Both the position numbers and the translations under genes were made by a program. A DNA stretch of 64,000 bases from contig CM060734.1 of assembly GCA_030704615.1 (NCBI GenBank), positions 57,102,001-57,166,000 on the forward strand, written 5' to 3'. Below the pieces are notes generated by a model that did not search any database, was not told where the DNA came from, and was given only the letters and a program-made list of their open reading frames with translations. The stretch comes from Takakia lepidozioides. Its lineage: Eukaryota; Plantae; Bryophyta. The stretch's first letter is position 1; the number at the start of each line of letters is the position of its first letter. Positions 1 through 53,680 of the stretch are shown here, piece after piece.

Positions 1-495
1 AATTACTAGTGTAATTCTTGAAGGCCAAACCCAGCTTTATTTTGAAGGTAAGTACTGCTCCTGAAGAGATTGGCAACTGCCTGCAGCTCCCCTTTTTACC
101 CCCTCACCCCCTCTTTTCTACCCCGTCCACACAAGGTGCAAATGACCACAAGGGCACTCTGGGAATAACAGTTACTCTCTTTCTCCACGGCTGGCTTTCT
201 GATAATTTATTTGTTTCTTTTGCTTTTCTCTGATAGGCTGTTTGGGCTTTTGCTAAGCTCCTTTCTATTTGTCTCTCTCTCTCTCTTCTCAGGGCGGTAT
301 GAAGATTTCTCTTTCTGCCCTCATCATTGGATTCTGAAAGACAGAATTGTGTAATTTTGACATGGCCCCATATATTACAGCCATTCATTGCCCATTCTGA
401 CTGACATATCAAAGTCAAGTTTGTTTAGCTTCAGCTACTGTCCTTTTCTCCACAACATGGGAAGTAACATAAAGTTACCAAGACACATTCCATAC

Positions 496-3400
496 CTCTG
501 CAGCACCGAAGGAATAGCCATACATCTCACTGATCCAGCCCTTCCCATATACATCACCCGTGATGTTGGTGCTCCAATGCTCCTTATCAGCCCGAACTTC
601 CTGTGTCTTTGAGAGCCAGAGCGGTGCAAAAACACGCAAGTCGTCAATATGCATGAGTATGAAGCCCCCCACCTTGTCACAGTATTCAGGGTGCTTTGTA
701 TGCAGTTTTGCCAGCTCGTTGTCACAGCCTTTCAGATACCTGCCATACACACACCCTATCCATTTCTCAAACCAAGGGAATTCCATAACCTGAAAAAGTA
801 ACTTCAATGCTAGGTTCTCATTCTCTCTCTCTCTCTCTCTTTCCTTGAATGTGGATATGTTCATTGTAACAACACTCAAGAACTGCCTGATCCCTCTGGC
901 TCTTTCTCCATCCTTGAGCATACATGACATTTCATGGCAAACTAATAGATGATATCTTGTGCTAGGCCCTGTCGCAGCAGCATAATAGAGTATATGTGTA
1001 CACCTTCTACATGATCCGGTCAATGTACATTGCTCTCTTGGCTGGTCTACTGTAGCCAATGCCTTAGGAAACCTGAAAATGAAAGGCTTGAGGAATTTTT
1101 TTCTCTCTCTCTCTTTCCTTGAATGTTGCTAAGATCATTATAGATAGCATTCAAGAATTGCCTAATCCCGTTATTCTGTTCAGATTTTTTTTGTCTACAA
1201 AGGAACGGGAAATTGGATAACGACTAGGGTGACTCATTAGGGTTCACCCTAGAGGTCTTAACCTAAAGCTGCTGCCCTATATGGTTAGTAAGCTTGGCCA
1301 CTCTTCTCATTTGGAAGAGGAGCAGGCAAGAGCTGAAGGAGCTGACTATACTATGGCTACAAGCAAGGTATCCATTCAGACTCCTTCAACACTGTGATGG
1401 GCTGCTTAGTATGGCAACACAAAGTGTGTTGACACAATGAGGAAGTTACATGGACTTGACTAAGCTCTACTCTGAGTCTAGGAACACTTGAGCAAAACCA
1501 AGGGCTTCTATATGGGTCCTTGCTTGAGTACTTGGTCTTCCTTTTTGGGAATAGGTGCTTGTTGTCAAGCTTACTCACATGGATTTCATTAAGCTCTACT
1601 CTGAGTCTAGGAACACTTGAGCAAAACCAAGGGCTTCTATATGGGTCCTTGCTTGAGTACTTGATCTTCCTTTTTGGGAATAGGTGCTTGTTGTCATGCT
1701 TACTCACATGGATTTCATTAAGCTCTACTCTGATTCTATGAATGCTTTTGCGAACCAAAGACCTCTATGTGTCCCCTTGCTTGAGTACTTGGCTCTAGTG
1801 ACAGCTTCCTTTTGGGAATGGGTGCTTACCGAATGAGACCCCCCCTCCCTCTGGAGCATGGGCTGAAATAGGTGCTGCTGATTTCTGTACCTATGTTGAC
1901 TAAAATGGCTGAAAGGACCTCCCCTACCTCTCCTCTCTTTGCTAGTATGACCTGTTGCAAGGATGACATTGAAAACAAATGTGAAGGGGTTTAAGCCTGG
2001 GGGTCCACAGGGATCACTAACCTGTTGGTAGTTGGTTGGCTGTGATCCAGGTGATGCCATTTCACCTTCTTTAGTTGCAGGAAATGGTACTAAGGGCAAG
2101 AGACTAAGGAAGTGCGGCATTGAACTCTCTCAAACCTCAAATCTGTTTGTATGTGTTGATTGTACACATACTACTGCTGTTTTGCTCTGTTTGGTTTGAT
2201 GGATGTATGAGCTTGTAACCTACATGGAGCTATTCATTTGTCCAACCAAGGGAATTACATAACGTGAAAATTAACTTCAATGCTAGGTTCTCTCTCTCTC
2301 TCTCTCTCTCTGGACTTTGAAGTACCTTTCTACCTTTTGTGGTCAATGGCCACAAGGCTACGGCAAACAACGTCTTATGAGTGCATTCTCTCTCTGGACT
2401 TTGAAGTACCTTTCTTTCTTCTTCTATTGCCCTCTATATTACGAGATCCGTGGGGGATTCCACTGTCTATTCCGCGGAACTCAATCTCTCACTGAAGTCT
2501 TCCACTATGAGGATCAGAAATGCTTGGCAGCTTACCTGCACAAGCCCTTCACCCTTAGACAATCCCTCGAGCAAAAGCTTTATTTTTGGCTCGGGTTTTG
2601 TTTCCTCTCTCATGTTTATTTCCATTTTGTCCCATAAGCTCTATGAGCTTTCCGCGGACGTTATAAACTACCATTTCATTTCTTTCATTCTCTCTCTACT
2701 CCCACTTGACATAAATAATGCAAACTATCAAAGAAACAAAAACATTCACACCAAGAAAGTGACACACCCATATCGTGCTGCCACAGGCTTGCCACGCTCA
2801 GCTCCACCTTCCCAGGCAGTAATAGGGCGCCTTAGAATTTGATCAGCATCTAGAATGAGCACCCAATCAACCGTGTTCGAATCTTGGCTACTATTGAGCC
2901 AGTGGACCACGCCTGCAGGTTTATTGATTGCTGGATACCTGAACCCATAGTTGTTGGTGCAAACAACTGTTAAGGGATCCAAAGTAGTAATTCTTCAGAG
3001 TCTGCAAACACCTAACACGAGCTAGGAATAGGCTGCACATAAGGCTGATGAGCAGAGGTTCAACAAAGCACTCAAATACATTGCGGTGCTGGATCCCATC
3101 ACCCGAAGTTTGGCATGCTATAACTGAACATCCCATTGAAAGGTTAAACAGAGAGCATACCAGTCACCAGTAATGGGGTTGTGACTCATAGAGGGAACGA
3201 CATGTGTGGGTGCCAAGTCCATGCCCCGGTAAGACTTCAATTCCTCATCGGTGCAGCTCAAGAGGCGGGTGATGGGTCCAGGCTGCCCACTCTTTCTGAA
3301 GCTGTGCATGAGTCCCACAGTCTGCCAATCAAAGTATACACCACACTCCACTGAAAAAAGTGTGTGCATCCGCCATGGAGGATTCGTCGAGTTATCGAGA

Positions 3401-3546
3401 ACATCTCCTGGGAACTCCTTGGGATCATTCAAAATTCTTGCACTGGAAACGTGTACCATTTGCAGTATCCACAAGGCAATTAGAGCCCACCAAAGCTGCC
3501 AGCCTTTGGCAAACGCCATTACTCTCCAGTCCAATGGAAAGGCCAT
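496..3546 (-). CDS. SERGT1: Peptidyl-serine alpha-galactosyltransferase, first 3 coding exons (3161-3546 or 3519, 2768-2938, 496-739); gene continues off the left edge
   Basis: Signal-peptide-like N-terminus; RMHTLFSVECGVYFDWQTVGLMHSF, WYPAINKPAGVVHWL, ILDADQILRRPI and CDKVGG...GWISEMYGYSFGAAE match plant SERGT1; GT-AG junctions join in frame. Confidence 0.9.
1462..1830. repeat. 129-bp tandem repeat (2 near-perfect copies plus a degenerate third) in a SERGT1 intron
   Basis: aagctctactctga starts at 1462, 1591 and 1720. Confidence 0.9.
2332..2394 (+). mobile_element. Extremely 5'-truncated RTEX-like LINE 3' end
   Basis: ggtcaatggccacaaggctacggcaaacaacgtcttatgagt is shared with copies near 31 kb and 62.1 kb; flanked by 21-bp duplication tggactttgaagtacctttct (2311-2331, 2395-2415). 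Confidence 0.8.
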
Positions 3547-5554
3547 CTCTATCACTCTCTCTACTGTCTTATTTTCCACACTTCCAGTTCTTATTGTCAA
3601 GTCGAACACCTCTATGACTCTCCTCGGAAAATGACCTAAATTGGAATTTCGATATGGGCATCCATCACAGGGCCCAAGTAAGAACGCCATTTTGAGCTAC
3701 AGTACACTCACTCAGACTCCCTAGAAAGAAGAAATCACGCCTTTCCACACAGTAAGACCGCCTACTAAGGACCAGTTTACAGACAGCGCTGTACACCATA
3801 TCAGAATGTTGTGTTGACAAAGAATTGATAAAAGTAATCTTCTTGGGTTTGAATTGAAGTCGAAATCTCAAAGGCTCATGAACCATTGCAGAATGCCTGC
3901 ATTGGCTGCACGAAGAATCTAACTCCCTTACGCCAGGAAATCTGAACTAAGTAAATCTATCAACCACTCAAGGTACGTATCTGAACGGCCAAAACTTTAC
4001 GAATCTACTCCGTCTGTAGTTGGAGGCATTCAGAACTATAGAGAGATTGCCCATGCGTAGGCCTGGGAGCTCAAAGTGACTCGGGGAAGCTTCTCTTTGC
4101 ACCACCCCTGTCTGAATGATGTACGCACCTCCAAGCTACATCACTTACAAGACGCAGGTGAACATGCAGCCTGTACAAAAATGCTGTCATCCTCACGCAA
4201 TCATTCTCAAAGCACGAACGAGCTCATCGCCATTGAACAAAACAAGGACGAAGTAAAAGCCTCGTTGACTAGAACACAGAACCCACAATGGCACAAACCA
4301 TCCCACCGCACACTCATGTTTCGTGCTGTAATGGCTGTCACCCGCACGGAGAAAGGACAAATCGCAGGACAGAGGTATTGTCCACAGCCCCCCAACCCAT
4401 GTGTCGATACAAATAGTCCAAGCTGAAAATGACCGACATCGGCTAACCTACCCCAAATCTCAGCATGACAGAAGAAAACTCCAACCTTGGCAGGTGTGCA
4501 GAGACAGGGAGCTATGGGTCACATTCGATGGATGAATACCGCAATAATCACTGTAACCTATACATTCCTGGCTGATACAGTGAAGACATGATGGAGAAAA
4601 CAAAACTGAGTTTTCCAACTTGTCTGTCACGACATTGATCAAATGTTGTTCAGCGACGCTCGCAGCAACATTCAAAGAGTGACTGTCTCTCTCCGATCGC
4701 TGCACGCAGCAGCAGCATTTATGTAATAGATAATGCTCCATCAGAAGATGGATACCAGCTGGCACCATTAACTCGTCAAGGATCATCATTGGTTATCGCA
4801 CTGAATGCTATTCACGAAAATGGACCTCAGTGTTTGAAAATGTTGAAAAGGCATGCTTTATGAACATTTTCCAGTGTAGGTGCATCTACTGTTCCTAGTA
4901 TGTAACTATGTCCTTTGCAGGCTTTAGTGGGGGAGTGCAAAGGGACACAATAGTGAGGCATTCAATGCAGTTGCTGCACTGGGCTGCCCGCTGTCTGGAG
5001 CTACCGGCCTCTGCAAGTGCGCCATAAAGACGCATTGAAGACATAGATGCTCTCACTTTGCATGCTCCAGGTGCAATGTCAAGGTACTGATCAAGTACAT
5101 GATAGTACCCCACAAAGGGTACATTATCACAGTCTCAGACCCTTCTCCTTGGCTTTTTAACACGAATGGATTCTCCATTGTAGGTGAGTGGTATTCATCC
5201 TCCGAATCGATGAGTGCATGTGGGTAAGTCCTGCTCCAACTCTCCACTAATGATGTGATCCTGGCGGACAAAAGAACTTAGCCACTCTTGAAATGTGTAT
5301 GACTCAAGAGTCAAAAGTTTGGAGTTTGGATATCCTCTTGGGCTCAAGTTGAGAGTGAGGATACAATGACCAACTCCCAAGATAAATGACATCACACACT
5401 TTTTTTCCAAATCATCCCAAACAAGTGACGTGTGGCTTCTTTGCTAATAGTGAAATGTACTTTCGTCCAAGTTGTAGCTCACCGGTAATGGGCACATGCC
5501 ACCTCGGAGTGGTTGTGGGTTCAATCCACACCTTTGTGTCACAAAGGTGTCCAC

Positions 5555-7460: not shown

Positions 7461-8756
7461 TCATTTTTTAATAATAGGGTCATGATTGCACAAGCGGGCC
7501 CCGCCAGGACGGCCCTTGGGGTGAGCTCATAAGACCACCGCCCATTCACCGGATCGGCCAGATTCTGAAATTTTTCTAAGTCCTTGTTCATCTACCGTGG
7601 CGGACTTTCTAGCAGACCGGGCAAACCCTCCAACACACCGACTCCAACCTTCTAGCAGACAGGCAGGCAGACCCTCCAGTAGACCGGGCAAACCCCCCTC
7701 CAGCAGACCTCCAGCAGACCGGCAGACCCTTCGACAAAATATATATTTAATAACACACATTACTGCCGCAATACAACCTGATAGGATTTGAACACTACAC
7801 CTTGTATTCATAGTACATTGCTCTTAACCACCACACTAGAGTGATCTTCCGCCCACTGGTGAGGGTTGTGATTGTCTTTTCATCAGCAATCAGAAGTCGA
7901 CATAGTTGCTGACACACAGTTGCAAAGAAGGTAGAGAGGCCATTTGGTGCTTCAAAGTAAATTGTTTAATAACCGAAGATTCATTCCGACAAAGAATATT
8001 TTGTGCTACTGGAGTCGGCGTCCAAAACGAAGGCAGAACTGTCTATGAAGACACTAGCCCTGCTTTGCACAAAACCCTTTCTGTTTAAAAGCAAACCAGG
8101 GAAAAAGAGAGGAGACTAAATTCCGAAGCTGCAGCCTCCGCATAACATGGCAATTTAAAATCTGCTTTCGGACTTGGGAAAAATTGCGGGTTTGCAAAAA
8201 AAGGGAGGAACCGTGGCGACCTTGGGCTCCTGTACACACAAACAAACAATGTAAGTCCATATACATTCAGCTGGCCCAACTTGTGCAGGAAAGATGGAAA
8301 TGGAAGGATACGCCGTCGTGTCAGTGAATTGCCACAACTGAACTAGCACTTACTCACATGATAAATCAGAATCAACATCCAGAGCATCGGGCTCTTGCAG
8401 ATCCTGCTCCACAACAATGTTCTCAGTCTGGGTCGAATTGTCGCGGCCCTTTGCCTTGAGGGCAGGGGGTCGGGACACGAGAGGGGCTGCCCCTGTGGTG
8501 GGGGCAGTGACAACAAAAGAGGCGAATGCGCTCACTAGGTGGAGCCCCACACACCGGGTTGCGGTGGGGGTGGTTCCACGAGGGGTGGTGGTAGCTTAGT
8601 GGGACTTAGTGGGGGTGACATAGGACTCACCATGGGGGCGGAGACCTTGTGGTGGGAGTCGTGGGGAGTCTTGGGACTCATCACGGTCCAAGGGGACCGT
8701 GGTGGGTAGGCCAAGACTCACCGCGACTCATCACCGGGAATCGAGGGTTTTCGTGG

Positions 8757-9170
8757 AGAATCTTATCCATAACCCTCTGAAACTCTACAGGAGCATTCTT
8801 CAACCCAAACGGTAGGAACCGCCATTGGTACAAGCAATCCTTCCCATGTTGGTCAATCCCCCAGAATGCCGTCTTTTGCTTGTCAGATTGGCAACTGGTG
8901 GTAACCGGATTGCAAGTCCAATGTGCTAAACACCTTTGCATGCCCAATGGCATCAAAGATTTCCTCTGGAGTTGGCATGGCATATCTATCGGACTTAGTC
9001 TGACGGTTCACAGGACGATAGTCCCCACACATCCTTCTTTCTGTCCAATTGCCATAGATATCATTCTTAGCTGGCATCACCGTTGCCGAGGCATACTCCC
9101 CGCCTGACAACTCCACCAATCCAGCTTCGAACAACTTCATAGTCCGTGACTGGATCAATTACCTCTCCAT
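8757..9170 (-). pseudogene. Gypsy reverse transcriptase, N-terminal half (ends before YxDD)
   Basis: RMCGDYRPVN, YAMPTPEEIFD, FSTLDLQSGYHQ, KTAF, LPFGLKNAPVEFQRVMD. Confidence 0.9.
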
Positions 9171-9799
9171 GTCACTATACCGGTAGGGCCTTCAAAAGAT
9201 TGACGTGTCACTAATCAATACGAATCTCCTGACCCTTCAAACTCCCCAAATCCTTCAAACCGAAGGCAAAGCAATTTCTATAAACCCTTAGAAATTGCTC
9301 AATCCTCCGTCTCTCTCCTCCGGTGACTGTAGGTCCAACATCTGGTTCCCAATTGTCCTCAGTGACTGCAACCTTGGGTACATCAAGCTTAGGGGTAGGA
9401 GACGAATCATTTGGTTGCTAGATAACAACCTCTTGGGCCTTGTCCGCCCAATCTGATTGTGGCGTAGCCTCCATTTGCTCTGCAATAACCACCTTGAGAA
9501 CATCCTCTGGGGAAGAAACATTCTCAACCTCTTCAAAAACATTGGTCACCTTGGCCTCCAGCTGATCCTCAGTGTATGGCTCTCCCCACTCCTCATATTG
9601 TTGCTTGAGAGATCCAAGGACTCTCTCTTTCCGCATCTCATCCCACATCTGTCATGGGTGTTTGTACCCCATGATCCTGTGCTCGCCCCCACTCACTGCC
9701 TCAACCATCCCAGTTGGTAGAGGTGATACAATACCAAATGGGAATGCAAAAATAGCCACCACTGTCTGCAACCTCCGTTGCTCAGCCATGCACAAGCCA

Positions 9800-10760
9800 A
9801 TGACCCATGTCAAGCAATTTAGATCCATTGCTTGATCCAACACATGTCGGCGTGATGCCTTTGACAAAGCTGGCACAGCTGTAGTGCCCGTGGCAAATCC
9901 CATTGCCCGCTCTCGCTCATCTGCATTGGGCTCCACCAATTATTGTAGCGCATTGTCCCAAATCAACCCAGGACCATTATCTCAAAAAGCATGAGATGAG
10001 GGAAAGCTCATGAGCGTAGGCAAGGCCGCACGTGGCTGCCCCACTCAATTTACCACTGCTAGAGGTGGACGGTCATCATGTCGCACCCTCTGTGGTTGCG
10101 ACCCTTAGTCCAAAATGCCCTCAACTGTGAGATTGGGTGGCCGTTGAATGGAATCGTATGTTCTCTTGAGCAACTCTGGTGGTGCAAGATTGGTCCACCA
10201 CAATCGAGGTCGATACGCTCGTGATCCCATCGCTGTTGCATCCAATAGCACCGCCGATCCAATCCAATACCACACCTGATGCACACTGGCCGTAACCCTG
10301 GCCCGAGAGTCCCTCATAAGAGGAACATTCTCGAAGATATAGGCTAGAGGTTGCACTTGTTTCGTCTGCAAGTCACGCAACACTCTCAACATCTCCCAAA
10401 ACAAATGCGATCGTGCATCATGCAAGCCGTTCCCATGACCTGCAGGAGAGTGTCCTTGGCAAGGCCATCCAGCTATCACCAAGTCAATGGCACCATGCAC
10501 GTCCAAATCATCCGCCCCCAGCAAGGTAATGTATGTTGGCAAGGCCTTTTGATACCCTTGAATTGCTGAGAGAGGCAACAACTCAGGATACCGGTGTGTG
10601 AGCAAGGCGATGTGGCGCATAGAAATACGCCGAGCTATTTCATCCTTCTCCACATACAAGTACTTGCGTACTTTAATCCCAGCTTGCAACACTCATGTAA
10701 GCCCAGTGCTCATGCCTCCAAACAAGTCTAGCAAACAAATCCCTGAGTCAGGTGGTTGCC
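9800..10760 (-). pseudogene. C5 cytosine DNA methyltransferase domain (DNMT3-like motif spelling) inside pol
   Basis: One frame with stops: motif I LLDLFGGMSTG (10696-10740), II VEKD, IV DLVIAGWPCQGHS, VI YIFENV, VIII RAYRPRLWWTNL, TRD LPTLMS, IX ERERAMGF, X RRHVLDQAMD. Confidence 0.9.
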
Positions 10761-11169
10761 AGGTAATGGGCACTGTATCCAAAGGAGCTAACTGAGGAGG
10801 TCCAGGTGATGTCACTGAACTCCCCTCACTCACCAATGGGAGGCCTCCTGCCATGCTTGGTGCACACACTCGCCTGCTACTCGATGCAAATTCCTAACTG
10901 TACCCCACAGTGGAATATGAACAGACACATGAGGAAGCAAATCAGCCTTGTATACCAGTTGTTTGTCCTCATCAGGCGGTGGCCTATTATCTGCATGGCT
11001 ATTGCCCTCCAAGAGCTCACCACCCCAAGCCACTATCCCCAAGAATGCAGCCAATGTGGGCATCATGTTCCTATGATCCACCGCTACATTCCCAATAAAC
11101 CGCACTGGGAGCAGTGCACGCCGACCATCCCCTGACTGTCATTCCGACATGTAGGATGTCGTTTCCTCC

Positions 11170-11500
11170 CAAAAGTCCAAAGTAAAGCCCATCGGGTATA
11201 ACACAGCCCCACCAACAAGCACATTATAAGACATCGCGTCCGTAACAATGGCTTTAGCTCTCAGGACAGAGCCATTTGTAGGATGATCTGGCTGCAATCA
11301 AAGGAAGAGTTCATGGCGTGTAATCCCTTGTGCCTTCTCTAAACCGCCCAAAGATGTTTGAATTTGGAAAGGACAAGGCTCCAAATCCGCCTCTGTAAGG
11401 CTCAAGCCTGCAATTGCTGCTTTCCCCAACATCAATGGCTGTGCTCCCGAGTCCAACAAGACCCGCAGTGGCCTATACCTCCTCCCAGCCGAGCCACCCA
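11170..11500 (-). pseudogene. Retrotransposon aspartic protease
   Basis: RVLLDSGAQPLMLG catalytic motif at about 11445-11460. Confidence 0.8.
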
Positions 11501-12299
11501 ACTGAAACATATCATCCTGATTGTCCACCAGGACTACCCTAGGAGTCATCATACTACGCTCAATGGCTGGTCTAGCTGGCAACTCTTGCAACCTTACAGC
11601 TGCCGCTTGCCATGGCGCAACTGTGGCTGTTTTCACCCTTGAATCCAAGGCATCCATGCAATGCACCTGATCCGCTATGCCTGCCAGATAGTGCCGATGC
11701 ATCACCACTCTTACAGAGTGCAGCTGCCAGTCTAAACACTGCAATTGGCCGCATCCCTGGCATTGCAATTGTCGTGGCAGAAAATAATGGAGCTTGGCAA
11801 ATTGCCGTAGCCGCCCCCAACAATGTACTGGCTGCACCTTGCTTTGCAGTACCACCCATTGGCATTTCCCGGGCTACACCAACTCTCCCCACCGGTACTC
11901 GTGGCTCTACCTCTGACACACTTGGGCGAGCGGGTACCATCGATGGCGTAGTTGGCACTATCTCAACCAATGTGAAAGACTGTGGAAGCCTTGTCTGTTG
12001 ACTTGCTTCCCCTCTTTGTGGATCAAAATCCACATCTGCTCCTCTTGGCTCAGGAGTACGCGTTGCTGCTCGAGTGACAGCAGCTGCAGAGTCCACATGC
12101 AATGGTCCTATAAGTGCGGCTCCACACATGAAGCCCATACCAATTTGGTCTTCCCTAGGCATAGGAGGTTGTGCAGGTGGGGCTTGAACCTCAGGCCTTG
12201 GAGCTGGCGCAACATGAGTAGTGGCCATGGTAGCAAGACGTTGCTCTAGCTGGGCAAGCCTATCCACCATGCCTTGGTCATGACCTTGACCTTGACCCT

Positions 12300-13653
12300 G
12301 TGCTCCTTGGTTTTGGTTACGACCTCCACCATGACCTCTGCCTCATCTACCTCTTTGGACTACATTGCCTCGTCCTCGGCCACCATTGTTCCCTTGGAAC
12401 TGGCCTGGCCGTAGCTCAGGATGCAAGTCATAACAATGGGCCTCTTCATGCCCATACTTGCCACAATGCCCACATTGTAGTTGTGTAGGCTGTGCCTGTG
12501 CCGACCCTTTGCCTCTCTCCGGGCAATCTCTCTTAACATGGGGTCCTCTACAATCCCAACATGTCACACCCAACTGTTGTTGGTCTGAGAATGAAGGAAG
12601 TGACCTCTGCAATTGAGATCTTCTCGGCCCTTCCCTGGGCTTCGCCTAAGCCCCCTTATTGCCTTGAGCACGTTGGGATAGTGGTTGTTGTTGGCCAGGA
12701 ACCCCACTTCGTTGTGTCTCCTGACCAAACCCCACCAAGACCACTCGCTCCTCCACCATATTGAGCTCTATCCGTTTTGCCAGCAAAAACACATTTGCTA
12801 AGGTGGGTTGATCCACTTGTAGGAGAGTTGCATCCCGCACCCTTCTCCTCAGCTCCTTGTCCAAGATCCCATACCAGAACTGGACTGCCTAAGCTTTTGT
12901 AACCCCTTGGGTTACGTTTATCAAGCGCATCATGCGAGTGTAAGCCTTCCTCAAACTCTCGGCAAGCTTTCGTTGGAATTCTTGCAAACTCCGCAATTTC
13001 TCCGTCCTTATCCCCTGGTAGTTTCTCCTTAACTCCTCGGAGAACTCCACAACTGGGTTAAAGGCAGGCACGGGTGTTGGTGCTGCAGCAGGAGCTTAGG
13101 TGGACTTCCCACCTCCTGTTCCATTTGACGTCCCACTGCTGCTTGCAGAAGCTGCCGGTGTAGCTACCGGTGTCACCACTGCCCTTGTGCCTCTAGTGAT
13201 GGAGACATAGTTAGGTGACCAATACACCCGCCATTCCTCAATCTCCACCTTATGTCCTCGCCTAAACTCATTGTAATCATCCATGGGCGGCCCCTCAAGG
13301 TGCTGAAACAGCCCCTTCCATGCCATAAAAGACGTAAACAGTTGTGGATTGCGCATCTGCTACAAATCACACCAACTATCAAACTCATGTATGAAATCAT
13401 CAAGCTCGATGGTGCCCACAACTCCAGAGTACGGACGTGGCCCCTTGGTAGCTCCATACATTTTCTCCATCGTATCCCACAACAATGGCACGGAAACGGC
13501 TTGCACCCTCGGCGAGAATCCTCCTAACTCTGAGTCTGAACCTTCATCAAAAGACACTGAATGTGAAGGTGGCCTAAACCACACACATCGTCTTGTGTAC
13601 CCACTAGTATCGTTGGTGCTCGTACCGGCTCTCTCCTCAGCAACTGGTGGCAC
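12300..13653 (-). pseudogene. Retrotransposon gag with two CCHC-type zinc knuckles
   Basis: YSG..ELDDFIHEFDSWC N-terminus; CWDCRGPHVKRDC and CGHCGKYGHEEAHC; several in-frame stops. Confidence 0.8.
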
Positions 13654-14671
13654 CTCCGTGATGAAAACTCACAACCACACCTGTTGTAAACCTGTCTCTA
13701 ATCCCCCTTTCCACAAGGTAACCGGGTAGAGAACCTGTTGCGGCTTATGGCTTAGACTACTAGGTTCGTAACATAAACCTGTACCTGCATCCACCGCAAG
13801 CACTCATATGGTCTGTTGGTCATCAACCCAGCCTCACCATAAGAGAAACAATGGTGGTCTGACTGGTCATCACCCCAGCCTCACCACCGACAGCATGCTC
13901 TAGGATTGGCCGGTGATCAAATCCGGACCAACCTCCTATGAAAACAAACGTCCACACAAAATTGACATGGCGCACAGTCAAGCATGCAGGTGTAGGGGGG
14001 ATCCAAACACAAGAAAATCAAGACAGTAACTCCCCCACACCAAAAAAAACACTCCACAGTGTCGCTCCTGCAAGGACACCCCAACCCAAACCCGGACTGA
14101 CTCTTGCCTCCACCTACGGAAAGGTTTTGGCCTACATAGAGGGTGGAAGACTACAAGGAAGAGAGACTAAAGCAATTCCTAATCCCAAAATTCTCTCATC
14201 CCACTAGTCTCCCCCTATCTCTAAACACTCTTGCTCATGACCAACAGACATAACTACCTTCCAGGGTCTCTCAAATAACTCTCCAAGAGCCCTCAAGATG
14301 TCTCTCAAACAATCTCACTAAGGCCCCCAAAGCCTGCCAAATCTTGGCCCTCAAGGACCCCAAAAAGTCCTTCAGACAAGTTGCCAAAGACTCCTTAAGC
14401 TCGCCAAATATTAGCCTCCAAGGACCCCAAAATAGTCCTCCAAATAGCCCTCCAAAGCTCCAAATGTTTGCCAAATATTGGTCTTCAAGGACCCCCAATA
14501 GTCCTCCAAACAGTCCTCCAAACACCCTTTCAAGAGAACTTCAAGTGTCTTACAAAAGCTCCTCAAAGGACCCCCCAAAGATCCTCCAAAGGCAATACTC
14601 CTCCAGATACACCCTAGATGTCATACACTTTTAATGCAAAAGTATGGCAGGCAAAGTCTCTCCACTTGTAT

Positions 14672-14840
14672 CCATACACTGTTCAAAACAGTGTATGGTG
14701 GGGCAGAGGGAGCCCATACACTTTTCAAAAAAACGTATGTTGGGTAGAGGGGGCCCATACACTGTTCAAAAAAGTGTATGCTGGGCAGATGGGTTCCATA
14801 CACTGTTCACAAAAGTGTATGATGGGCAGAGGGAGCCTAT
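14672..14840. repeat. About 41-bp tandem repeat x4, each unit an internal hairpin
   Basis: Unit ccatacactgttcaaaa-agtgtatg-tgggcagaggg; arms catacact / agtgtatg. Confidence 0.85.
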
Positions 14841-14859
14841 TCCTTGAAGAGTATGGAGA

Positions 14860-16693
14860 CTAAGGTTTGTAGAGTATAGTAAGAAACACCTTCTTCATGG
14901 TATCTTCCTCCCTAACATGCATGCAAGATTGCATTATCTTATTTTGCAATGCATTCATCCCAAATTGACAAGTTCCTCTTGATCTCTTTGGAACTCATAG
15001 CAAGCTAATGTGCCCAATGACAAGCGCCAAGCCTTGCTTGAATTTGAATTGTATGCCATCTTCCATGTGCTTTCCCTTGCATGGGCTAGTCACACACACT
15101 TCCACCTCTTGACCTAGGTGTTGTCTTCATTCATCATAATGTGTATCCACACCTCTATTCAAGAGCTCATCTTCTCAAACTTGAAGTCACAACCCTTAAG
15201 AGCATGCTCCACATAAGCATCACTTGCTTGATCAACCATCCACCACAAAACTTAAGCAAAAAGGGAATGAATACATGAGCTTCACCTTCCCCTTCCTTGT
15301 CTTGTCACATGCTAATGTATGGTTGAAGCTGTTATGCATGCCGTGAGCCACAGTCTCCTTTCTTCATGAAGACCACCTCCAATGATCTCCCACATGTACT
15401 CCAAGTTCTTCAATACTCTAGGCTTGGTTTCACATCATCATGGATAGAATTCTCACCCACATGCTTCCCTTTGGAGTCATCTTGAGCTTCTTGATGCTCT
15501 CCAAGTGGTTGCTTTTGTTGTCTTCAAGCCCTAGCCTATGTAGCTCCTTGGCTTTTCTTCCACAACATGCCCCACCTCATACACAAGGAATGAATTTGCT
15601 CACTTCACCTTCTAGCTCTCCTCAAGCTTGAATTGGAAGCCACACTTGGAAAGCATGTTCCACACATGCGCCACTTGCTTGGTCAATCACTTGCTTCATT
15701 AAGAGCAATCCAAGAACTCATAGAACTAGCAAAAGCACTCCATTCTAGCGCTACCTTCGCTTGCTTGTTTGTCAACCAAATGAAACCCCACTTGGCTTCA
15801 TTTCACCATGGATAGAACAACCACTTCTTAGCGTCTCTTGAGCTACTCAATGCTCCTCAAGCTACCCTTGTTGTACTCCTTCTATGGTATTTCCAACCCA
15901 AGCATGTGCCGCTCTTTGGCTTCTCTTTCACACCATGAACAAGTACTAGAGCTTGCTCTTGAAACCCTAGTGTCTATCTTCTCCACACACAAGACGCTTC
16001 TCTTGTGATGCAAGAGCTATTTTCCAAGCTCTCAAACCCTTAGTGCACATACAAGCACTTACCTTGCAAAACCATGCAAGCTTTGTGATACAAGAGCTCT
16101 CTCCTAAGCTCTCCACCTCTGCAAAGTCTTGTAACTCAAGAGCTCTCTCCTTGAGCTCTCCACCTCTTTGATGCAATGCAAAAACACTCCTCCTTGCAAC
16201 ACCTTGCAAGCCTTGTGAGATACTTGAGCTTTCCTAGCTCTCTCACTCCTTGGTGTATACCAACACAAGTGTTAAAACTAATCCTTACACTCCGCACTCA
16301 CAAGCATAAGGTGATCTTCTTGTAGTGATAATAGAAGTGAACACACAATGGAAACACTTCACTCATGAATCCACTCAATCACATAAACTAAGTCAAGCCA
16401 AGGGCACCTTTGCTAAAGGAATCCATCCTACAAAGCCCTCACCATACTCCCTTTCAATACCTAGAGCTATGGAGGTGGGAGAAGCTCATGGAGGCTCAAC
16501 TACAAGAAGATGAGCCCTCCTCAACACTCACAAGGGGAAAACCCATCCCCATGTCTCAAGTGAGGTTTGACACCTCACTTGGCATGTGAGACCAAATGAA
16601 GTCCCAACACACAAAATACAAATATAAATATCCAAAATGTCCTAGTTAACTAGAAGTAGGTAATTCTAGTTAACCATGACTAAAACCATGACA
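14860..16693 (-). mobile_element. Possible second decayed LTR element (LTR-like 16270-16693, PBS-like 16248-16262, degraded coding-like region)
   Basis: Minus strand reads TGTCATGG...TTTTAACA, then tggtatacaccaagg (loosely like an iMet PBS), then purine-rich ORF remnants. Confidence 0.35.
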
Positions 16694-28806: not shown

Positions 28807-31800
28807 CTAGCCATATTTTGTGTAAAGGACATCCTCCCATGGATGGCGATAGAGAGGCTGCTTCAAGCGCTTTTGATCGAAAGTGTGCCTGCATGATGGA
28901 AACAAGAAAGTGAGTGGAAGAAGAGTGACTAAGGGCTGCTAGTATAGAGCATCCTTGCACAACCATGGCCCCTTAACTGCTGAGGCTAGGGCATCATTTG
29001 TTTTGAGGAACCCTGGGCACCTCAATAGTTTTAGAGATTAACTGTAAAATTCCTCCTGCAGGTCTCATTCACCTTGAGAGGAGAGAGGTGCTTGTTCAAA
29101 TCACAACACATTGGAAAGTTTCACTCCTCAGCATGGGTTAGACCTATGAATTTCCTTTTACCCGGCTCAGTTATGTACTCTGCAATGTGTCTGGATGGAA
29201 AGGGCCTTGAATACCAGCGGTTCATCAAAAGTGCAAAGAGGCTGAGAGTACTTACATGCTGGGCTTCTGCTTGGTCACTTTTAAGCAACGTTCACTAATC
29301 TTGGCCTCAGTCCCCTCAACTTACTTCTCTAGGAGGTCAGTCTTTGAGACACTCAATGACAGGAACCTCAGGCTTCCCTCTTCAGAATTGCTCAGTTCTC
29401 TTTTCATAGGATAGAATCGAATTTTTCAGGCACCTAATTTTGTCCATTTGAGCCAATGTCACACATCACTTCAATTCACCTCTGGAGATCGAGGTGGGAG
29501 AGTACATCCCGTTCAGGAGAAGTAAACTTTATAATGTCCACGGGACGCTCTTATGGGACAAAGAAACAGAAGATGAAATGAATCGAATAAATGGGCCCTC
29601 ACCAGCCAGCCTCCACCAGAGAGACACAGAAACTCACCCAATTAGACCGATGCTCCGAGCCAGTACAAAAAGGCCATTCAGGTACCCAATCTCGATGATC
29701 TCATCAATCTCCTGTTGAGTGAACATGGCACAACTCGAAAGCAGATCTAGGAAGAGGGATCCAATACAGCCATCCACATTCATAACAAGGTTGCTGGCTT
29801 TGGAAAGAGTGTAGGTCTCCACTGTCACAGCATAGTCCATGTATTTCACCGCAGGGAAATGCTGCCGCGCATAACGTTGCAGCAGCTCCACCCTCTTATC
29901 ACGGTTGTCACGACTTTTGATCCTGTTTGCATAAACACATTGTGAGGTTCGTCTGTTTCTGTGTCTCTCAACTAACGTATGTAAGCTGCACTATCTGCAC
30001 TTTGAAGTAAGAAAAACCATGCGTTGCCGCTTTATTAGGCAAAGCGGCCTGCCTTGGAGTACGCATCTGCAGTATGGGTTGATAACTCTAACCAGGCTAA
30101 GTCTCTAGAATCCATTCAAGTGGGGGTGCTTAAGGAGTGCATGTCAGCATGCTCCGAAACAGCCAACATGGCTATTCGAGGTGAGTTTGGCATCCCTTCC
30201 TTAAGCTACCGACGAGATGAATACAAGGTCAGATGGTGGGGTCAGCTGCAACATATGTCTAATATCAGATATCCTAAGTTAACTGACTCTATATCTTGGA
30301 AGCACGATCGCCCTGTCAAACAGGCTAGGTCCTGGTGGAAGAGAGTAGAAGAGATTCTCAAGGATCTGAATCCAAGCTCGCAAGGCTTGACCCTGCTGGA
30401 TAAATCTGACTTAGAGGCTGTAATGTCCAAAGCCATGCGTGTTGCCAGGAAATTGTCTGATGAAAGTGAAGTTAGGCTGAAAACTTCCCCGAACTTGTTT
30501 CCAGTCTGTGACATGGAAGAGGCCATCATGGATGACCTCAATGGTTTACCCACCCTCGGTAGTAGACTAAGCTCAGGGCAGGAAGCCTACCTTTGAACAG
30601 CAAACAGATGCAGAGAGGAAAGAGGGATTGCAATTGCCCATTGTGTGCGCAACCTGAAGACAATATTCAATTTCTGATTCCTTGTCCTGGGTACTCTCGC
30701 GAAAGAGACGCCCTCTTCAAATCCATGAAGGGAATTGTGCCTGAACCTCTGTTTACCAACTTTGAAAGTCTCGAGGCTGAGGCAAAAAGCCCAGGCCCTA
30801 TTAGGGCCTAGTTATTGGGCAAACCACACACAGCAGATTGATGCATGTGTGAAGGGATTTCTAGAGGGTATCTGGAAAACTCGGATTAATTGTCTGTTCC
30901 AAGGCAAGTCATACTACTGGCATCAGCCCCTGACAAGGTAGTTTCTGTCCCTTCGTGTTTCGCTCAAACTGAGCGCAGGGTCAATGGCCACAAGGCTACA
31001 GCAAACAACGTCTTATGGGTACACTCTCTCTCTCAGCCCAGGCCCTTTTGGTAGTATTGGGCAAATCACACACAGCAGATTGATGTTGTGTGAAGGAATT
31101 TCTAGAGGAAAAAACTCGGATCAATTGTATGTTTCAAGGTAAGTCATACTACCGGCGTCAGCCCCTGACAAAGGTAGTTTCTGTCCCTTTGTGTTCCGCT
31201 CAAACTGGGCGCAGGGTCAATGGCCACAAGGCTACGGCAAACAACGTCTTATGAGTACATTCTCCAAGTCCTGCTATCGGAGTAAGCCCCTCACATGGTT
31301 CTCAAAAGGTGTTATAGCCTTAAAGATGACCAAATCCAAATGAACAACGTCTGTTGAGTCTGTCAACTCTCGCCGGCAGTTGATTTCAGGATTGAATCCT
31401 ACAATTTTGCCAAGGACTACAACTGTATCCATCCAATGCAAAGCATCTGTAGAGCCAGGCAAGTGACGCATTAATGTAGGTTCCAGAGTTGCAAACGTTA
31501 CCGGTGACCAATACCCGGTACACGAATGCCCTTCTTCTTCATGCTTTCCACAAAGTTGTAGGGTGTCAGGCCTCTATCGTGAGCATCTTTGAAGTAGCGG
31601 GCAGCATCATCAATAGCTCCACCAAATCGTGGTCCAATGGTGAGAAGACCTGCTCAAGGGAGACATAATTTGGTGCAATTGCTATCATAGAATTGACAAG
31701 AACAGAATTGATAGAAAACAATGCAGAATCATTTGGAGAGCACTAGGTAACATGTTACATGACATGCCAAGTTACTGACTCAGGTTATTAGGATTTGCTA

Positions 31801-34800: not shown

Positions 34801-37698
34801 CTATCTTTCTATTGGTCTTATGAGTACATTCTATTGGTCTATCTGCTCCAAAGATCTTGTCTGCTAGACAGAATTCTGGACACAGACGTCCAACAGGTTC
34901 TAGAGCTCTTAACAACATGTGCACATATGCATCTCATTCAATCCCCAAAACCTCAAAACTTATTCCAGCAAAAATCACTGGCCTTTCCCCGCAATAGCTT
35001 ACCATGTCCAGGCCAGGAGTCTTCTGAGGTCCTTGGTTGACACAGCCAATTAATGTTTAGTTCTGTGTTGAAAAAGGAAGACAGCAACCGGTGGGCATGT
35101 CTCTAGGGGCAAAACAAAACAGACTACATAATAGGTCCTCCACCAACCTTGTTGTTAGCGCGAGCATAAGCAATAAGTTTCTTAGCATCTGCCTCCGGCA
35201 CTCCCTCAGCAATTATTGCCACCACTCGAATTGTTGGCTGCTTAAGCGCCTCCATGGATGATACAAAAGAACTACCAGCACACACAACTTACAAATCAAC
35301 ACCTGTGTTCCAAACCAACAATTGCAACGTTTCCTCCAGGCCGTATATTTATTTAGCTTGCTGGTAGCTTGTAGCCTTCAGAATTTTTCAACTTGCAAAA
35401 ACATAAACTTCTTCTTTGCATCTGGATTCACCACTTCTATATGCCATGGCAAGAAAGTATGGTCACATGTGGTAGGTCCTAGCCCCAAAGCCTTCTGCAT
35501 GGACACCATTGAAGAGTGGTTCATGGCTGATCTATTTGATGCATGAATAACTCTTATCAGCTCTGGATGGACAGAAGTCAGAAGAATAGTATTATTTGAC
35601 ATGTTCCCAGGCATCCTAATCAAACTACTCTACTAAAGATACCTCTTCAGTCCGGGCAATATGATCACAAAACCAAGAGGAGTGTCAAATGCTATGCTCA
35701 CGTACATGAGGCACCCTGTCTCCAAGTGATGTTAGGAGAAGTTTGATACATTCTTGTGGTTTTAAAATGTGTTTCTCATAGGTCCTCTGGGCTTATCTAT
35801 CTTTGCTGCGTTTTTTCTTGTTGGTCTCTGTGTGCATAGGTCTCTTTGGGCCTCAGGTTTCTGTGATTCTATTGTGTTCTCCTATTCGAATTTCCTTGGG
35901 CTGAGCTTCCTGCAGACATAAGAATTTTCTTTCTTTCTAAAGTACCATTTCATTTCATTCTCTCTCTCAGTGGGAGTAAACAACGTCTCGGGCATTCTCA
36001 TCAGAGAGTGACACTCTTCAGGACCGTCAAGAACATAGTGCCTGAACAAGTTTCAAAATCTCGATCCTAAACCCAAAGCCCTGCCCCTGTTGGGGTGTAT
36101 TTGCTGGGCAGCTCACACACAGCAGATTGATGCTTGTGTGAAGGGCTTTCTTGACGAAATCTGGAAAGCTGGAACTGATTCTTTCTATCCAGGTAAGTTC
36201 CACAATTGGAGTGAGCCCCTCACAATTCCCTCTTGCTTCGGCCAAACTGCTATGGCCACAAGGCTACAGTAAATACTATCTTATGAGTACATTCTCAGTG
36301 GGAGTGTGGTTAAACCTGCGAAAAGATGAAAAGTTGATGAAGACATCGGCTGTTGCATGAGCCTTGCAAGCAGCAGAGATGCTGATACACACCAACACCA
36401 AAAACAAGTGAATTTCATGTCGGGTGTGTTGAAGAGTGAGCAAAAAGGAGCAACAACCAAATACATATATCCCCATACATAAGAAAGCATTTGTAAATGT
36501 TCCATGTATGACAAATACAGACTTGGAACGCTCAAATGAGAGAGATAAATCCCCAGATAATTCCAGTCGACTTTCCCTTCTCAAACTGTCGAAAGATCAC
36601 TGCTTTTTGTCCAACTGGCAGCTTCTGAAAAGATGCAAGAGTGTGAAAGAGACGTTGAATCCGAGCCCCAGAATATGACCTCCAGTTTGACATGCATTTA
36701 AAGGTCTTGCTACAAACGTCACAAGATATCTAGTATGCCAATCAAAAACAAGTATGTGAGAAAGGTTGTTTTGTCTCATCAACGAGCACACCTGCCATGA
36801 ACTGGCACCGCAATTTCTTCTTGTCCAAAGAACAACTTATGAAAGCCCTCTGACCCGGGGTGAATCACTCCTGCAACAGATGGTATCTCTCTTCCTGCCT
36901 CCCAAGTTCCATCCACAGACGAAGAATGAGGAGTCTGGAAAGAACTGGTCAATAGTCTCACACATTTCCGTTCTGTAACTTCTGAATACTGCCCGATGAG
37001 CAATTTGCATATAGAGAAATAAGAAGGCCAACCCTGCCTGTCGCACTCCTTGCAACTTCCAAATCCGAACTATGAACAACGTGCGTCAGCTGAATTGCTG
37101 TTAAATCCGTCCAAATATGCAATTAAATCCGTCCATGCAAACGGAGTAAATATCTTCACAAGCGACATAATTCACGAACGCCCCTCATTAAAAGTATGAA
37201 AAAGTATGCAGACCATCCCCGGTAATGTAGACTTCAAAAGATGCTTCTTACAACATTGTCGCAGACTGTTTAGGTGCCGTTTGCAAATAAAACTAATGCA
37301 ATTCTGCGCTTTCAATTACATGTAATTTGGTAGCCAATGCAACATTTTGCAATATTCAAGCAATTGTTCCCTCTCATAGAATTCTCGAAATCATCTCTCA
37401 TGCTGCGTCACCAAAATTTCAAGCACAAACTACAATCTGCAACACCGAAATCGATTTCTTCTCCAATCCATGCGAAAACAGTAATCCCTTTCGGCAAAAA
37501 TTCTGAACAACCGCAGGAAAATCTAAGCAACTGGACTAACTGATTTCCCGCGGGTGAAAGTAGAATGCACTTGTGCCAAACACAACTACACGACATACCA
37601 CATAGAAAGTCAAAATCAAGCATGCGCTGCACCGGGCTCTGTTTGTAGTTATAGAACAGGGCCTGAGTAGTGCGCGAAAAAAGTTGTCCCGTCGACAT
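28807..37698 (-). CDS. ACLB: ATP-citrate lyase beta subunit, 14 coding exons, 610 aa
   Basis: Exons 37599-37698, 36792-36894, 36316-36381, 35148-35271, 34613-34747, 33999-34136, 33355-33510, 32887-33015, 32595-32727, 32206-32333, 31817-31922, 31502-31649, 29638-29922, 28807-28888 total 1833 nt; [15 protein letters not shown]...VQFGHAGAKSG...[12 protein letters not shown]...[10 protein letters not shown]. Confidence 0.97.
30040..31264 (+). mobile_element. RTEX-like LINE 3' fragment plus a second, shorter 3' fragment in tandem, in an ACLB intron
   Basis: LEYASAVW...AIRGEFGI; C-terminal CPLC..ED..QFL..CP.Y; 3' ends cttatgggtacactctctctctc (about 31033) and cttatgagtacattctc (about 31264). Confidence 0.8.
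35978..36292 (+). mobile_element. RTEX-like LINE 3' fragment in an ACLB intron
   Basis: [16 protein letters not shown]; TSD tctcagtgggagt (35965-35977, 36293-36305). Confidence 0.75.
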
Positions 37699-51500: not shown

Positions 51501-53680
51501 TGGATGTGCAATGCTCGAGGATGAGAAGGGGACAAACGGAGCAACTTTCTGGTAACAGAAAGGCAGGCTGCTTCATCTCCAAGAGCAATCAAAACCTCTG
51601 CTAGCTTCTCCATGCAGCTCCCTGTGCATTATCCAATTGAAAAACAGAATGTTATGTTCTCTCTGAGATTCACAGTTCTGCCACCAATGCTTTACCCTAT
51701 TGGTTCTCTTTTATTAAGACCAGAGATACAAGCCCCAACCCGAGGTACCTCTCTACCAGAAGTACTTGGCAGCATGACTACACAACCTTCATAGAACAAA
51801 CCCTGTACACATTACAGCGAGAGCAAAGGGAAACAGTTACCACACAGTTAGAATATGCACAGATGGAGCATGACGGTAGACAAGAGGATCTTACAGTGGC
51901 GGGGGCTGCAACATAGGCCCTGCTCGAAAGCCCGGCGAGCAACATTGAGAGAGCCAACAGAGCATGCAAGTGTCCCTAGCCGGTTCCACAATACCACATC
52001 CTTTCCATCAATGGCCGCTGCCTTTATATAGCACTCCAATGCCTCGTCATAGTGGTCAGCACCTTGCTTGGAGAATGTTTCAGCCAAATTTCTCAAGGTT
52101 GAAAACCTAACAACCCAGGGCATGAATCGAGCTGATTCAATACTTGCATATAGTGGTAAACAAAGAACGAAGCTTGTAAATTGGTTGCATGCATTCCAAA
52201 CCCTATATGCAACACAAACAACTCTTAAAGACGTTTCCAAATCCCACCAATTGAATGCTAGATAATCAATCTCCAATTCAGCAAAGATTAGCTGCTATTT
52301 ACGTATGTAATACAAGCCAATTAAAGCATGTACAATATGCAGTCATTTGGGTGCCTGGAAACGGATCCAACCTCAATTGTAGCATGGTGCCAGAGCCTGT
52401 CACACTGTCTCTCTGCCAAAAGACCACTAAACATATCAAACCTTGAAACATTTGTGCAACATAAGCCTCTGTCCTTGAATTACAAATAAGTCATCAGAAG
52501 AGCTGAATTCAACAACAAACTCTTGAGAAAAAATTGTCAAGGCATTTCACCTGAGCCTTGACTGAAATAGGGTCTTGTAAAATGGCCTGGAAGAGATTTT
52601 TGGCCTGATCCAGTCGGCCCAATTGCAGTTGAGACAGTGCTTCTCCATACATTTGTGTCAGCCGGAACTCCTACAGCATTTACAATTTCAAATTCATTCA
52701 GCAGCTCATGGCTCGATCTCTGTTTTTGACAGCAACATTCTAACGAGGTTCAGGTCCTCAGGACATTAAACTCTTGAAGTAATCATGCAAATATGTCCCA
52801 ATCAACCCCTCTCTCCTTCTCACTCTGAGCCTGGGTCTAATGATTTCTTCATTGGTTATAGGTTCTTGGGCCTTATTCTCTCCCTCTCAAGATGTCTCTC
52901 AGAGTGAGGGCAAGAACTCTGAAACACGTTCAAAAACCAAAGGAAGGAAGACAAATGTCCAACCAATCCCACCTTGTGCTTTCACAAACACTAAACACAA
53001 TGGGCTACCCAACTACTCTTTCACACACATTGACTAACCTACCAGAAAATGTGTATTGCTCAATAAAAATACACACAAATGAAGTAGTTTCTAACAACCC
53101 CGCACACATCACTGATGGAATATTGCCTAGATCACAAGCTCAAAGTTTGGAGGAAGAGATGAAAATGAAAACTTCATAACATACAGCAAATAAGATTTGA
53201 AGTGCACACCTGGGCTTCTTTGGTGGGAGCAAGGGGTTCCCCCTGCTTCCGTGTGGTGTCCACATCATTGATGGCCTTGATGGAGAACTGCAAAGCCCAT
53301 TCCATGCAATTCAAGTATAATTTGCCAGAGTTGCACGAGCAGTGGAAACCTACTAATGGCTATGAGAGTTTGAAAACACAACCACGTAGACAAGAGGAGT
53401 TTACATGGAGAGAGCCCATCCAACCCCAACATACACTCTTGGTAAAACTAAATCAGCAACAACTGCAATCACAAGCAAAAATGAGTGGACAATCTCCCCT
53501 TATCAGCAGCAGAGACTGCAACTGTTAGAGAAGCTAGAAATTGCCATATTTCTGAGCCAAAATGTCATAGACCAGACATGCCAGTTACGCATGTGCCAGT
53601 TCTTGCAAAAACCCTCAAGAATTTTCAAAAGAACTTTTTTTTGATCTGATAAACACATTCAGAGAAGAAAAATTTACCAT
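39600..53680 (-). CDS. CABIN1: Calcineurin-binding protein 1 (HIRA-complex TPR subunit), multi-exon; exact 3' end uncertain
   Basis: M|[16 protein letters not shown]|EF; [22 protein letters not shown]; ERRSTRLER; [13 protein letters not shown]; [16 protein letters not shown]; [15 protein letters not shown]; [14 protein letters not shown]; large exon at about 49.2-51.6 kb. Confidence 0.9.
42033..42177 (+). mobile_element. 145-bp solo LTR carrying a tRNA-derived Pol III A/B-box segment, in a CABIN1 intron
   Basis: TG...CA ends; perfect 5-bp TSD CCTAC (42028-42032, 42178-42182); internal tagctcagtggcagagc and T-arm ctagg-ttcaatc-cctag. Confidence 0.65.

Follow-up and report, generated by a model that had tools for sequence, protein, structure and literature searches.

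A retrotransposon lineage of mosses and liverworts with gypsy-type enzymes and a DNMT3-like methyltransferase at the end of its first reading frame

Why retrotransposons keep cytosine methyltransferases has been a question since 2018, when the sole case on the plant side was that of an alga whose enzyme was inactive in yeast. This is KnitGypsy-Dnmt3 of Klebsormidium nitens, which carries a non-permuted, intronless Dnmt3-related domain in its gypsy coding region (PMC5890265). Here we describe a related element in the moss Takakia lepidozioides, from a window of 64,000 nucleotides (GenBank assembly GCA_030704615.1, contig CM060734.1, positions 57,102,001 to 57,166,000 of the forward strand; positions below are counted from the first letter of this window). 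A decayed gypsy-type copy on its minus strand carries a DNMT3-like DNA methyltransferase (DNMT) domain between protease and reverse transcriptase (RT). The publications cited were available in part, and what is said of them applies to those parts.

KnitGypsy-Dnmt3 further shares with the family of the Takakia copy purifying selection and DIRS-like A-coding-B-A-B repeats, the latter seen in relatives and not in the window copy (PMC5890265), and K. nitens has homologues of the window family in the proteins KFL_013780020 and KFL_000540010. The two differ in their hosts, an alga as against land plants, and in sequence (DNMT identity about 36% to Marchantia). Moreover, the algal DNMT is placed in the Pol open reading frame (ORF) together with RT (PMC5890265), whereas a conserved stop separates them in the window's clade; DNMT and RT do share an ORF in the protein P0250, and the linker between them is likewise open in a second subfamily. 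Readthrough, self-priming, target duplication and a PHD finger do not appear in the available text and supplements of PMC5890265. The window lineage is a variant of KnitGypsy-Dnmt3 and not a plain member, set apart by its land-plant hosts, a DNMT at the end of ORF1, the stop, a PHD finger on the integrase, and permuted repeats whose ends are of integrase type.

Split direct repeats of the form A-coding-B-A-B are also shared with DIRS, PAT and Ngaro elements, including SymbioDIRS-Dnmt3 (PMC5890265), but the relatives of the window copy possess a DDE integrase (rve, H2C2), a Ty3-type RT, TG..CA ends and a 4-bp duplication. For Tf1/Sushi and Tcn1 chromoviruses, too, self-priming is predicted because the sequence directly 3' of their 5' repeat is complementary (PMC6317226), and from these the window family differs by a PHD finger instead of a chromodomain, by the DNMT and by its permuted repeats; the REXdb paper (PMC6317226) mentions, in its available parts, neither PHD nor Marchantia nor a methyltransferase domain. 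The EpiLTRs of Cymbomonas and Euglena (bioRxiv 10.64898/2026.05.21.726589) are likewise gypsy-like with a C5 DNMT, but have DAM, a chromodomain and a DNMT4-sister enzyme, and the preprint sets them apart from streptophyte Gypsy-DNMT3. Troyka was rejected on its CG..CG ends, 3-bp duplication and animal hosts (PMC12440569), as against TG..CA and 4 bp.

No paper describing land-plant elements of this kind was found in the literature searched, subscription papers and Repbase lying outside it. PMC5890265 names only K. nitens, and its proteome table holds Physcomitrella and Selaginella and no Marchantia or Sphagnum; PMC12344493 and bioRxiv 10.64898/2026.05.21.726589 say just 'streptophytes', and bryophyte sequences may be present in their supplements or on FigShare trees. 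The available parts of PMC11982613, PMC10952607, PMC6453930, PMC6317226, PMC5784723 and PMC2864245 contain no mention of DNMT-bearing elements in land plants. Already known is the element of a green alga; new are the land-plant range and the ORF1-terminal DNMT set off by a stop.

The Takakia copy and its bryophyte relatives

The whole element lies on the minus strand and reads, from 13470 to 8757, gag, protease, DNMT, tail and half an RT:

13471..14120, minus strand: 5' leader; its left limit is approximate and set where contig cover in run X1 drops sharply (past about 14120)
12433..13470, minus strand: gag with two zinc knuckles, start of ORF1, decayed; 46% identity to Marchantia Mp4g09160
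12561-12523 and 12474-12433, minus strand: the zinc knuckles of gag
10839..11654, minus strand: aspartic protease region and spacer, flanked by two frame breaks; LDSGA at 11456-11442
9790..10740, minus strand: DNMT3-like C5 cytosine methyltransferase domain, non-permuted, with five in-frame stops; PF00145, E 8.8e-13
9421..9789, minus strand: C-terminal tail of ORF1, with one stop at 9654, taken as decay
9412..9420, minus strand: TAG that closes ORF1, conserved as a stop (42 of 44 covering loci) and followed by CAA CCA; readthrough is likely here
8757..9411, minus strand: N-terminal half of a Ty3/gypsy RT, with which ORF2 opens; two frame breaks, truncated at about 8757
8440..8756, no strand given: terminus of a very high-copy repeat adjoining the truncated RT; contigs exit at 8439 and 8756

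Motifs I to X of the DNMT stand in standard order in one intronless frame: LDLFGG (10731-10714), YVEKD (10656-10642), GWPCQ (10470-10456), FENV (10335-10324), RPRLWW (10212-10195), RERAMGF (9915-9895) and DQAMDL (9837-9820). The profile check suggested by the earlier note, which was made from the letters alone, came out clearly for the methyltransferase (48.8 bits against a cut-off of 22 in the Pfam scan, stops read as X) and less so for its neighbours: the RT pieces gave RVT_1 at E 1.2e-6 (28.9 bits, just under the cut-off of 29.6) and E 0.016, while gag and protease had no Pfam match at E<=0.05. In relatives, the protease region matches Asp_protease_2 and gag-asp_proteas below or near the Pfam cut-off. 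The gag part (13470-11686) aligns colinearly with residues 1-562 of Mp4g09160 at 46% identity, the protease part with residues 571-844 at 45%, and the DNMT part, also colinear, at 62%.

Decay is of the same order across all parts of the copy, with stops in 5 of 594 gag-spacer codons, 2 of 272 protease-region codons and 5 of 338 DNMT codons, and frame breaks near 11686, 10839, 9220 and 8885. The earlier note's reading of two-knuckle gag, LDSGA protease, DNMT and gypsy RT on the minus strand, with a DNMT non-permuted, in one frame, intronless and as decayed as the rest, is thereby borne out. RT homology ends at about 8757-8760, and the RT half is 84% identical over 151 columns to that of the near-intact metagenome locus L008. 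RNase H, integrase and terminal repeats are missing from the window, a search of which for a long terminal repeat (LTR) pair, an A repeat and a self-priming pair also came up empty, and the leader 13471..14120 has no recognisable terminal repeat and no repeat partner within the window. The copy is a dead, 3'-truncated element.

At 8439, 64 contigs pass from the adjoining repeat into mixed flanks, and 104 run on beyond 8756 into other sequence; the repeat matched neither the relatives' termini nor the leader. Its plus strand begins TGTCGCG, close to the family's left end TGTCATG, and it may be an A repeat of the DNMT family or of a related family in opposite orientation.

The window's own genome holds many copies of the element. 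In one T. lepidozioides run, 39,392 contigs map to 7500-16500, mostly at below 99% identity (summed contig depth is not a copy-number measure here), and contigs about 85% alike from the same organism's run span the joins of protease region to DNMT and of DNMT to tail. As a protein query, the window DNMT retrieved 61 longer and 144 similar-length relatives; named among the 181 listed of these 205 are 17 from Marchantia, five from Calypogeia, four from Sphagnum, one from Riccia and one bacterial bin. DNMT identity is 55-68% in relatives from Marchantia, Calypogeia, Riccia and Sphagnum, and the order gag-protease-DNMT is the same in Marchantia, Calypogeia and Sphagnum. Marchantia possesses five full-length ORF1s of 1278-1281 aa, 95.5-97.8% identical and all with FGG, PCQ and ENV. 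Among the 181 listed, named proteins of vascular plants, hornworts, Physcomitrium or Ceratodon are missing, which is no proof of absence because most matches carry no species name and decayed transposable elements are rarely annotated. The bacterial entry, P0085, has a 49%-identical DNMT and is labelled as a Candidatus Obscuribacterales metagenome-assembled genome; it probably stems from a plant or an alga and was binned with bacterial sequence. Viral contigs yielded one distant DNMT (27%) and no RT relative, and from two runs presumed to be of RNA only scattered contigs were obtained, which say nothing on expression.

A profile search returned 536 clusters at E<=1e-30; among the ten looked up, one belongs to Closterium and one to Klebsormidium nitens, both protease-DNMT. 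Since a Klebsormidium-cluster protein, which shares 98% identity with a K. nitens fragment, can be aligned to its Marchantia counterpart without a break from protease through DNMT (595 aa, E 5e-51), the protease-DNMT fusion is homologous. In 80 metagenome loci of 112 confirmed, the order is gag-knuckle-protease-DNMT-RT-RNaseH-integrase-PHD as far as the contigs reach, and RT begins within 900 nt of the complete DNMT end in 43 of 81 fetched loci; the metagenome loci cluster with S. troendelagicum in the tree. It has to be held against these counts that they overstate the independence of the loci, because these were selected by DNMT from a few related metagenome series with the same insertion sometimes repeated; relatives without a DNMT lie outside such a survey.

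The window joins Marchantia and Sphagnum-like elements in both the DNMT tree (100/99) and the RT tree (100/100), and the two trees are congruent on this clade and on a separate clade of RH-DNMT-INT order. In the DNMT tree (unrooted, with deeper branching unresolved), K. nitens groups with the protease-DNMT elements (100/99). Inside the bryophyte clade, Sphagnum-like elements pair with Marchantia (99/92), apart from the window's moss copy, which may reflect old paralogous lineages or horizontal transfer. By these sequences, the family spans mosses and liverworts as a DNMT-bearing gypsy-type lineage in which the enzyme is integral to the element. The earlier note had proposed such a lineage for this land plant; its range turns out wider, with full-length ORF1s in Marchantia, and the supposed kinship with charophyte elements (de Mendoza 2018) agrees with the homologous K. 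nitens proteins and their place in the DNMT tree. Of the outcomes that the earlier note named as refuting it, neither was seen: the PF00145 match is significant, and relatives carry a DNMT at the same site.

The notion of a pol domain, in contrast, had to be given up. Between DNMT tail and RT the window reads TAG CAA CCA (9420-9412). Among 44 close loci, 39 could be anchored, and 38 of these have TAG (26) or TAA (12) at one site after the DNMT, with CAA directly following the site in all 39; on a ruler of 1156 codons, that site is a stop in 42 of the 44 loci and the other 1155 positions in at most 31%. L008 has TAG CAA CCA and then an ORF2 open to the contig end, whose best solved match is Ty3 Gag-Pol (E 3e-86). 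ORF1 ends 97 aa after motif X in Marchantia and 99 aa in Calypogeia, and KFL_013780020 ends 12 aa past the DNMT. Contig variants of at least 20% are listed at 17 nearby places and at none of 9415-9420, although the stop meant as control, 9652-9654 (12-18 nt from the edge), is unlisted too, which leaves this observation weak. The stop at 9420-9418 is a conserved family feature and not decay; because the DNMT closes ORF1 (gag-protease-DNMT) and the stop separates it from RT, it is not a pol domain in this lineage.

Termini and replication of complete relatives

Terminal structure and priming site are known from relatives, the window copy being truncated. Complete copies consist of A (about 340 bp), the coding region, a polypurine tract (PPT), B (113 bp; about 173 in a second family), A and B. 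The full A-coding-B-A-B order is present in L014, L038, L044 and L075/L077, and B-A-B also in L021, L048 and L068. The ends are TG..CA, and a 4-bp target duplication is exact in six of the eight copies with both ends and has one mismatch in two; the survey held two further copies without the left end. The enzymatic gypsy order gag-PR-RT-RNaseH-integrase is present in relatives, the window stopping inside RT. Their integrase matches rve and Integrase_H2C2 and bears a C-terminal PHD finger (E 4.5e-9 and 2.1e-9); no chromodomain matched at this C-terminus, and the Pfam scans gave no tyrosine recombinase. A classical layout, with a full LTR flush at each end, is not seen: A stands on the left, and B-A-B or a lone B on the right. 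The element is gypsy by its enzymes and not by its LTR layout.

Lone-B right ends occur in 8 of 14. They were considered as products of one-LTR circles, which was rejected; because L023 (B) and L048 (B-A-B) share one insertion site, the lone-B ends are secondary, through B-B recombination or assembly collapse.

The start of a tRNA primer site after A was not seen by eye (no tRNA database search was made). In 17 of 24 copies, A contains a site that the 11 nt after A match at 10 or 11 of 11 positions, as against 0-6 of 200 in controls; in six of those 17, another site that lies further 3' is matched best. When folded from AGTT after the TATA box, the RNA 5' end pairs with the priming site in six of seven foldable copies, a TATA match being missing in 7 of the 14 copies of this test. 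The self-priming pair is spelled differently in the two families.

A circular intermediate is the usual model for DIRS-type elements, and the present layout would fit integration from a two-LTR circle cut at its internal junction. From the repeat layout, the ends, the target duplications and the complementarity to the site in A, we infer the following course. The RNA would start about 31-34 nt past the TATA box in A, and the minus strand would be primed on the 11-12 nt just after A, as in Tf1. Ordinary LTR-type reverse transcription would then produce (B-A)-internal-(B-A), whose ends would be joined into a circle, and the DDE integrase would cut one internal B/A junction (CA-nn-TG) and so generate A-internal-B-A-B.

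The layout could also arise without a circle, if reverse transcription switched templates once more and so added B at the right end of a linear complementary DNA (cDNA), with integrase trimming the ends, and we regard this as a serious possibility, if not the one we would choose. A nearly fixed A2/B2 join is what a templated join would leave, and the observed join, with one intervening purine in five of six main-family loci and precise in the second family, lends fresh end-joining weak support. However, L014 has about 20 extra bases at this join, which end like the PPT end, and the inner B1/A2 junction is an uncut CA-nn-TG in all eight loci that retain it intact (two of these represent the same insertion; deleted in L040/L041), where a staggered cut would yield processed ends. 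The A-B-A-B layout would be a natural case for an integrase acting on a circle junction, and LTR finders that expect a flush pair would miss it.

Role of the methyltransferase and expression of ORF2

The closest solved structures by sequence are DNMT3A/3B (E 1.4e-10). The predicted fold of an intact relative (predicted local distance difference test score 81) matches DNMT3A with Z 24.2 (root-mean-square deviation 2.8, 270 aligned), DNMT3B with Z 24.0, M.MpeI with Z 20.5 and CMT, DNMT1 and MET1 with Z at most 15.7. By best sequence and predicted-fold match the enzyme is DNMT3-like; this likeness is best-match evidence, host DNMT3 sequences lying outside the trees. Mammalian DNMT3A/3B and moss DNMT3 (PMC6453930, PMC10952607) differ in that the element enzyme has no PWWP/ADD or plant accessory domain and is situated inside a retroelement polyprotein. 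A plant DRM was rejected, as in the earlier note, on the non-permuted motifs and the scores (DRM2 21.5 bits as against DNMT3A 43.8). Phage DNMTs reach at most 31% identity among the 12 of 227 records listed, and the ESM Atlas gave generic C5-methylase clusters only.

The ratio of nonsynonymous to synonymous substitution rates (dN/dS) of the DNMT is 0.13, 0.17 and 0.19 in three pairs, with dS near saturation and pairs with L067 saturated. PC is kept in 184 of 194 covering proteins and ENV in 196 of 219; the catalytic Cys, ENV and the motif VIII Arg are retained in about 90% of the proteins that cover them. Purifying selection thus acts on the DNMT and on its catalytic motifs.

We favour, with moderate confidence, a reading in which ORF1 encodes gag-protease-DNMT, ORF2 is reached by readthrough, and the DNMT is packaged at Gag-like levels and methylates new cDNA. 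Its location in ORF1 suggests that the DNMT would be made with every Gag and hence be in the particle, where the protease would free it and 5-methylcytosine would be put on the cDNA before integration; the new copy would probably arrive resembling methylated host DNA, and the PHD finger would read the target chromatin. Methylation of cDNA would be the simplest use of a packaged DNMT, and the same role has been proposed for SymbioDIRS-Dnmt3, which methylates CG in yeast (PMC5890265). Several points weigh on the other side. Activity in the window family is predicted from sequence, and in yeast no methylation by the K. nitens enzyme was seen, which the authors of that work deem inconclusive (PMC5890265). 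The ratio of observed to expected CpG is 0.43 in window ORF1 and 0.38 in a host exon, and 0.26-0.62 in relatives against 0.49 in a nested gypsy without a visible DNMT; no element-specific depletion of CpG or CWG was found in the composition of window and relatives.

It is conceivable, though we doubt it, that the DNMT is kept for another job, either non-catalytic binding of cDNA or RNA, or methylation of the element's own promoter or of host chromatin that damps its activity. The missing CpG signature and the inactivity in yeast would suit this explanation, and a host-beneficial slowing is listed as an option by de Mendoza (PMC5890265). However, the retained catalytic residues argue against it, and placement in the Gag ORF would put the DNMT in the particle alongside the cDNA.

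ORF2 (RT-RNaseH-integrase-PHD) is likely made by readthrough of the TAG-CAA stop, CAR-YYA after UAG being the readthrough signal of tobacco mosaic virus type in plants (PMC2754532, PMC2194720). It speaks against readthrough that strict CAR-YYA occurs only in the window and 2 of the 39 anchored loci, most having CAA CCC, and that an ATG lies two codons past the stop in 36 of the 39. Nor is the stop universal, because the DNMT-RT linker is open in the subfamily of L071, L078 and L079 and in P0250, and the window has a second stop at 9654, upstream of the TAG, where relatives have Trp and which we take as decay. The ATG and the prevailing CAA CCC would also agree with an ORF2 expressed by reinitiation, an internal promoter or splicing in the same element, as would Candida Tca2, in which local stop context gave no readthrough in yeast (PMC2194720). 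We consider these routes unlikely, since the window (AAT), L008 (GTG), L009 and L046 lack that ATG and yet retain stop-CAA-CCN in frame, and the CAA is invariant. That a host methyltransferase retrocopy or a neighbour gene merely sits inside one decayed gypsy copy can be set aside, with nothing found for it beyond the decay of the window copy and, against it, the same DNMT position from Klebsormidium to Marchantia and Sphagnum, the congruent trees, the purifying selection and the many copies in the same genome.

Tentatively, the lineage might be green-plant-wide and probably still young in Marchantia, combining Gag-level DNMT loading, tRNA-free priming and DDE insertion from a circle, with the DNMT in two polyprotein slots (streptophytes and chlorophytes); if true, a recombinase-element layout would have been reached with a retroviral-type integrase. 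The usual count of Marchantia DNA methyltransferases is five (PMC5784723), which omits several ORFs that are borne by transposable elements, are catalytically complete by motif and could act when silencing is lifted. Marchantia polymorpha is a genetic model for which methylation mutants exist, and its full-length ORF1s make the question of why retrotransposons keep these enzymes directly testable.

Sister lineages and other features of the window

In a sister lineage, to which P0051, P0237 and P0247 (Hariotina reticulata) belong along with many proteins from the profile search, the related DNMT has its place after RNase H and ahead of integrase (RT-RH-DNMT-INT-PHD). This lineage makes up one side of the DNMT and RT trees and includes the chlorophyte Hariotina; a chlorophyte host for this DNMT was not found in the available parts of the literature searched. 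The full RT-RH-DNMT-INT-PHD order occurs in 29 of 139 new representatives, and motif IV reads GWECQ in 60 of 109 matches, as against GWPCQ. The metagenomes that hold the main family also contain a second one (L056, L059, L061, L065, L067, L071, L073-L080), deeply diverged from it at a DNMT identity of about 40%. This second family has no stop in the DNMT-RT linker and its own A and B sequences, with the same A-B-A-B layout, a 4-bp duplication and a differently spelled self-priming pair.

Upstream of the Takakia copy are short tandem-like repeats (14280-14840). Elsewhere the window contains HPAT-like exons at 475-3696 (PF23452, weak), an intronless AHA1 N-terminal gene at 57008-57622 (PF09229) and an eRF1 domain-3 fragment at 61440-61832. 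The intronless gene (57011-57622) matches Sphagnum clusters best (68%), followed by liverworts (58-60%) and by other mosses and a fern (54%); in a tree of 25 rows it lies within the moss clade (99/98), sister to a group of Sphagnum and the remaining mosses, which for this single gene suggests a host that probably branched off early among mosses. Copies of another dispersed repeat lie at 30081-31263, 36045-36301 and 62087-62747; their ORFs have no Pfam match and presumably resemble the 3' ends of long interspersed nuclear elements. The large TPR gene at 40344-52294 we take to be CABIN1-like, and the repeats of about 300 nt at 58959-60190 and 63472-63771 presumably read as PPR motifs.

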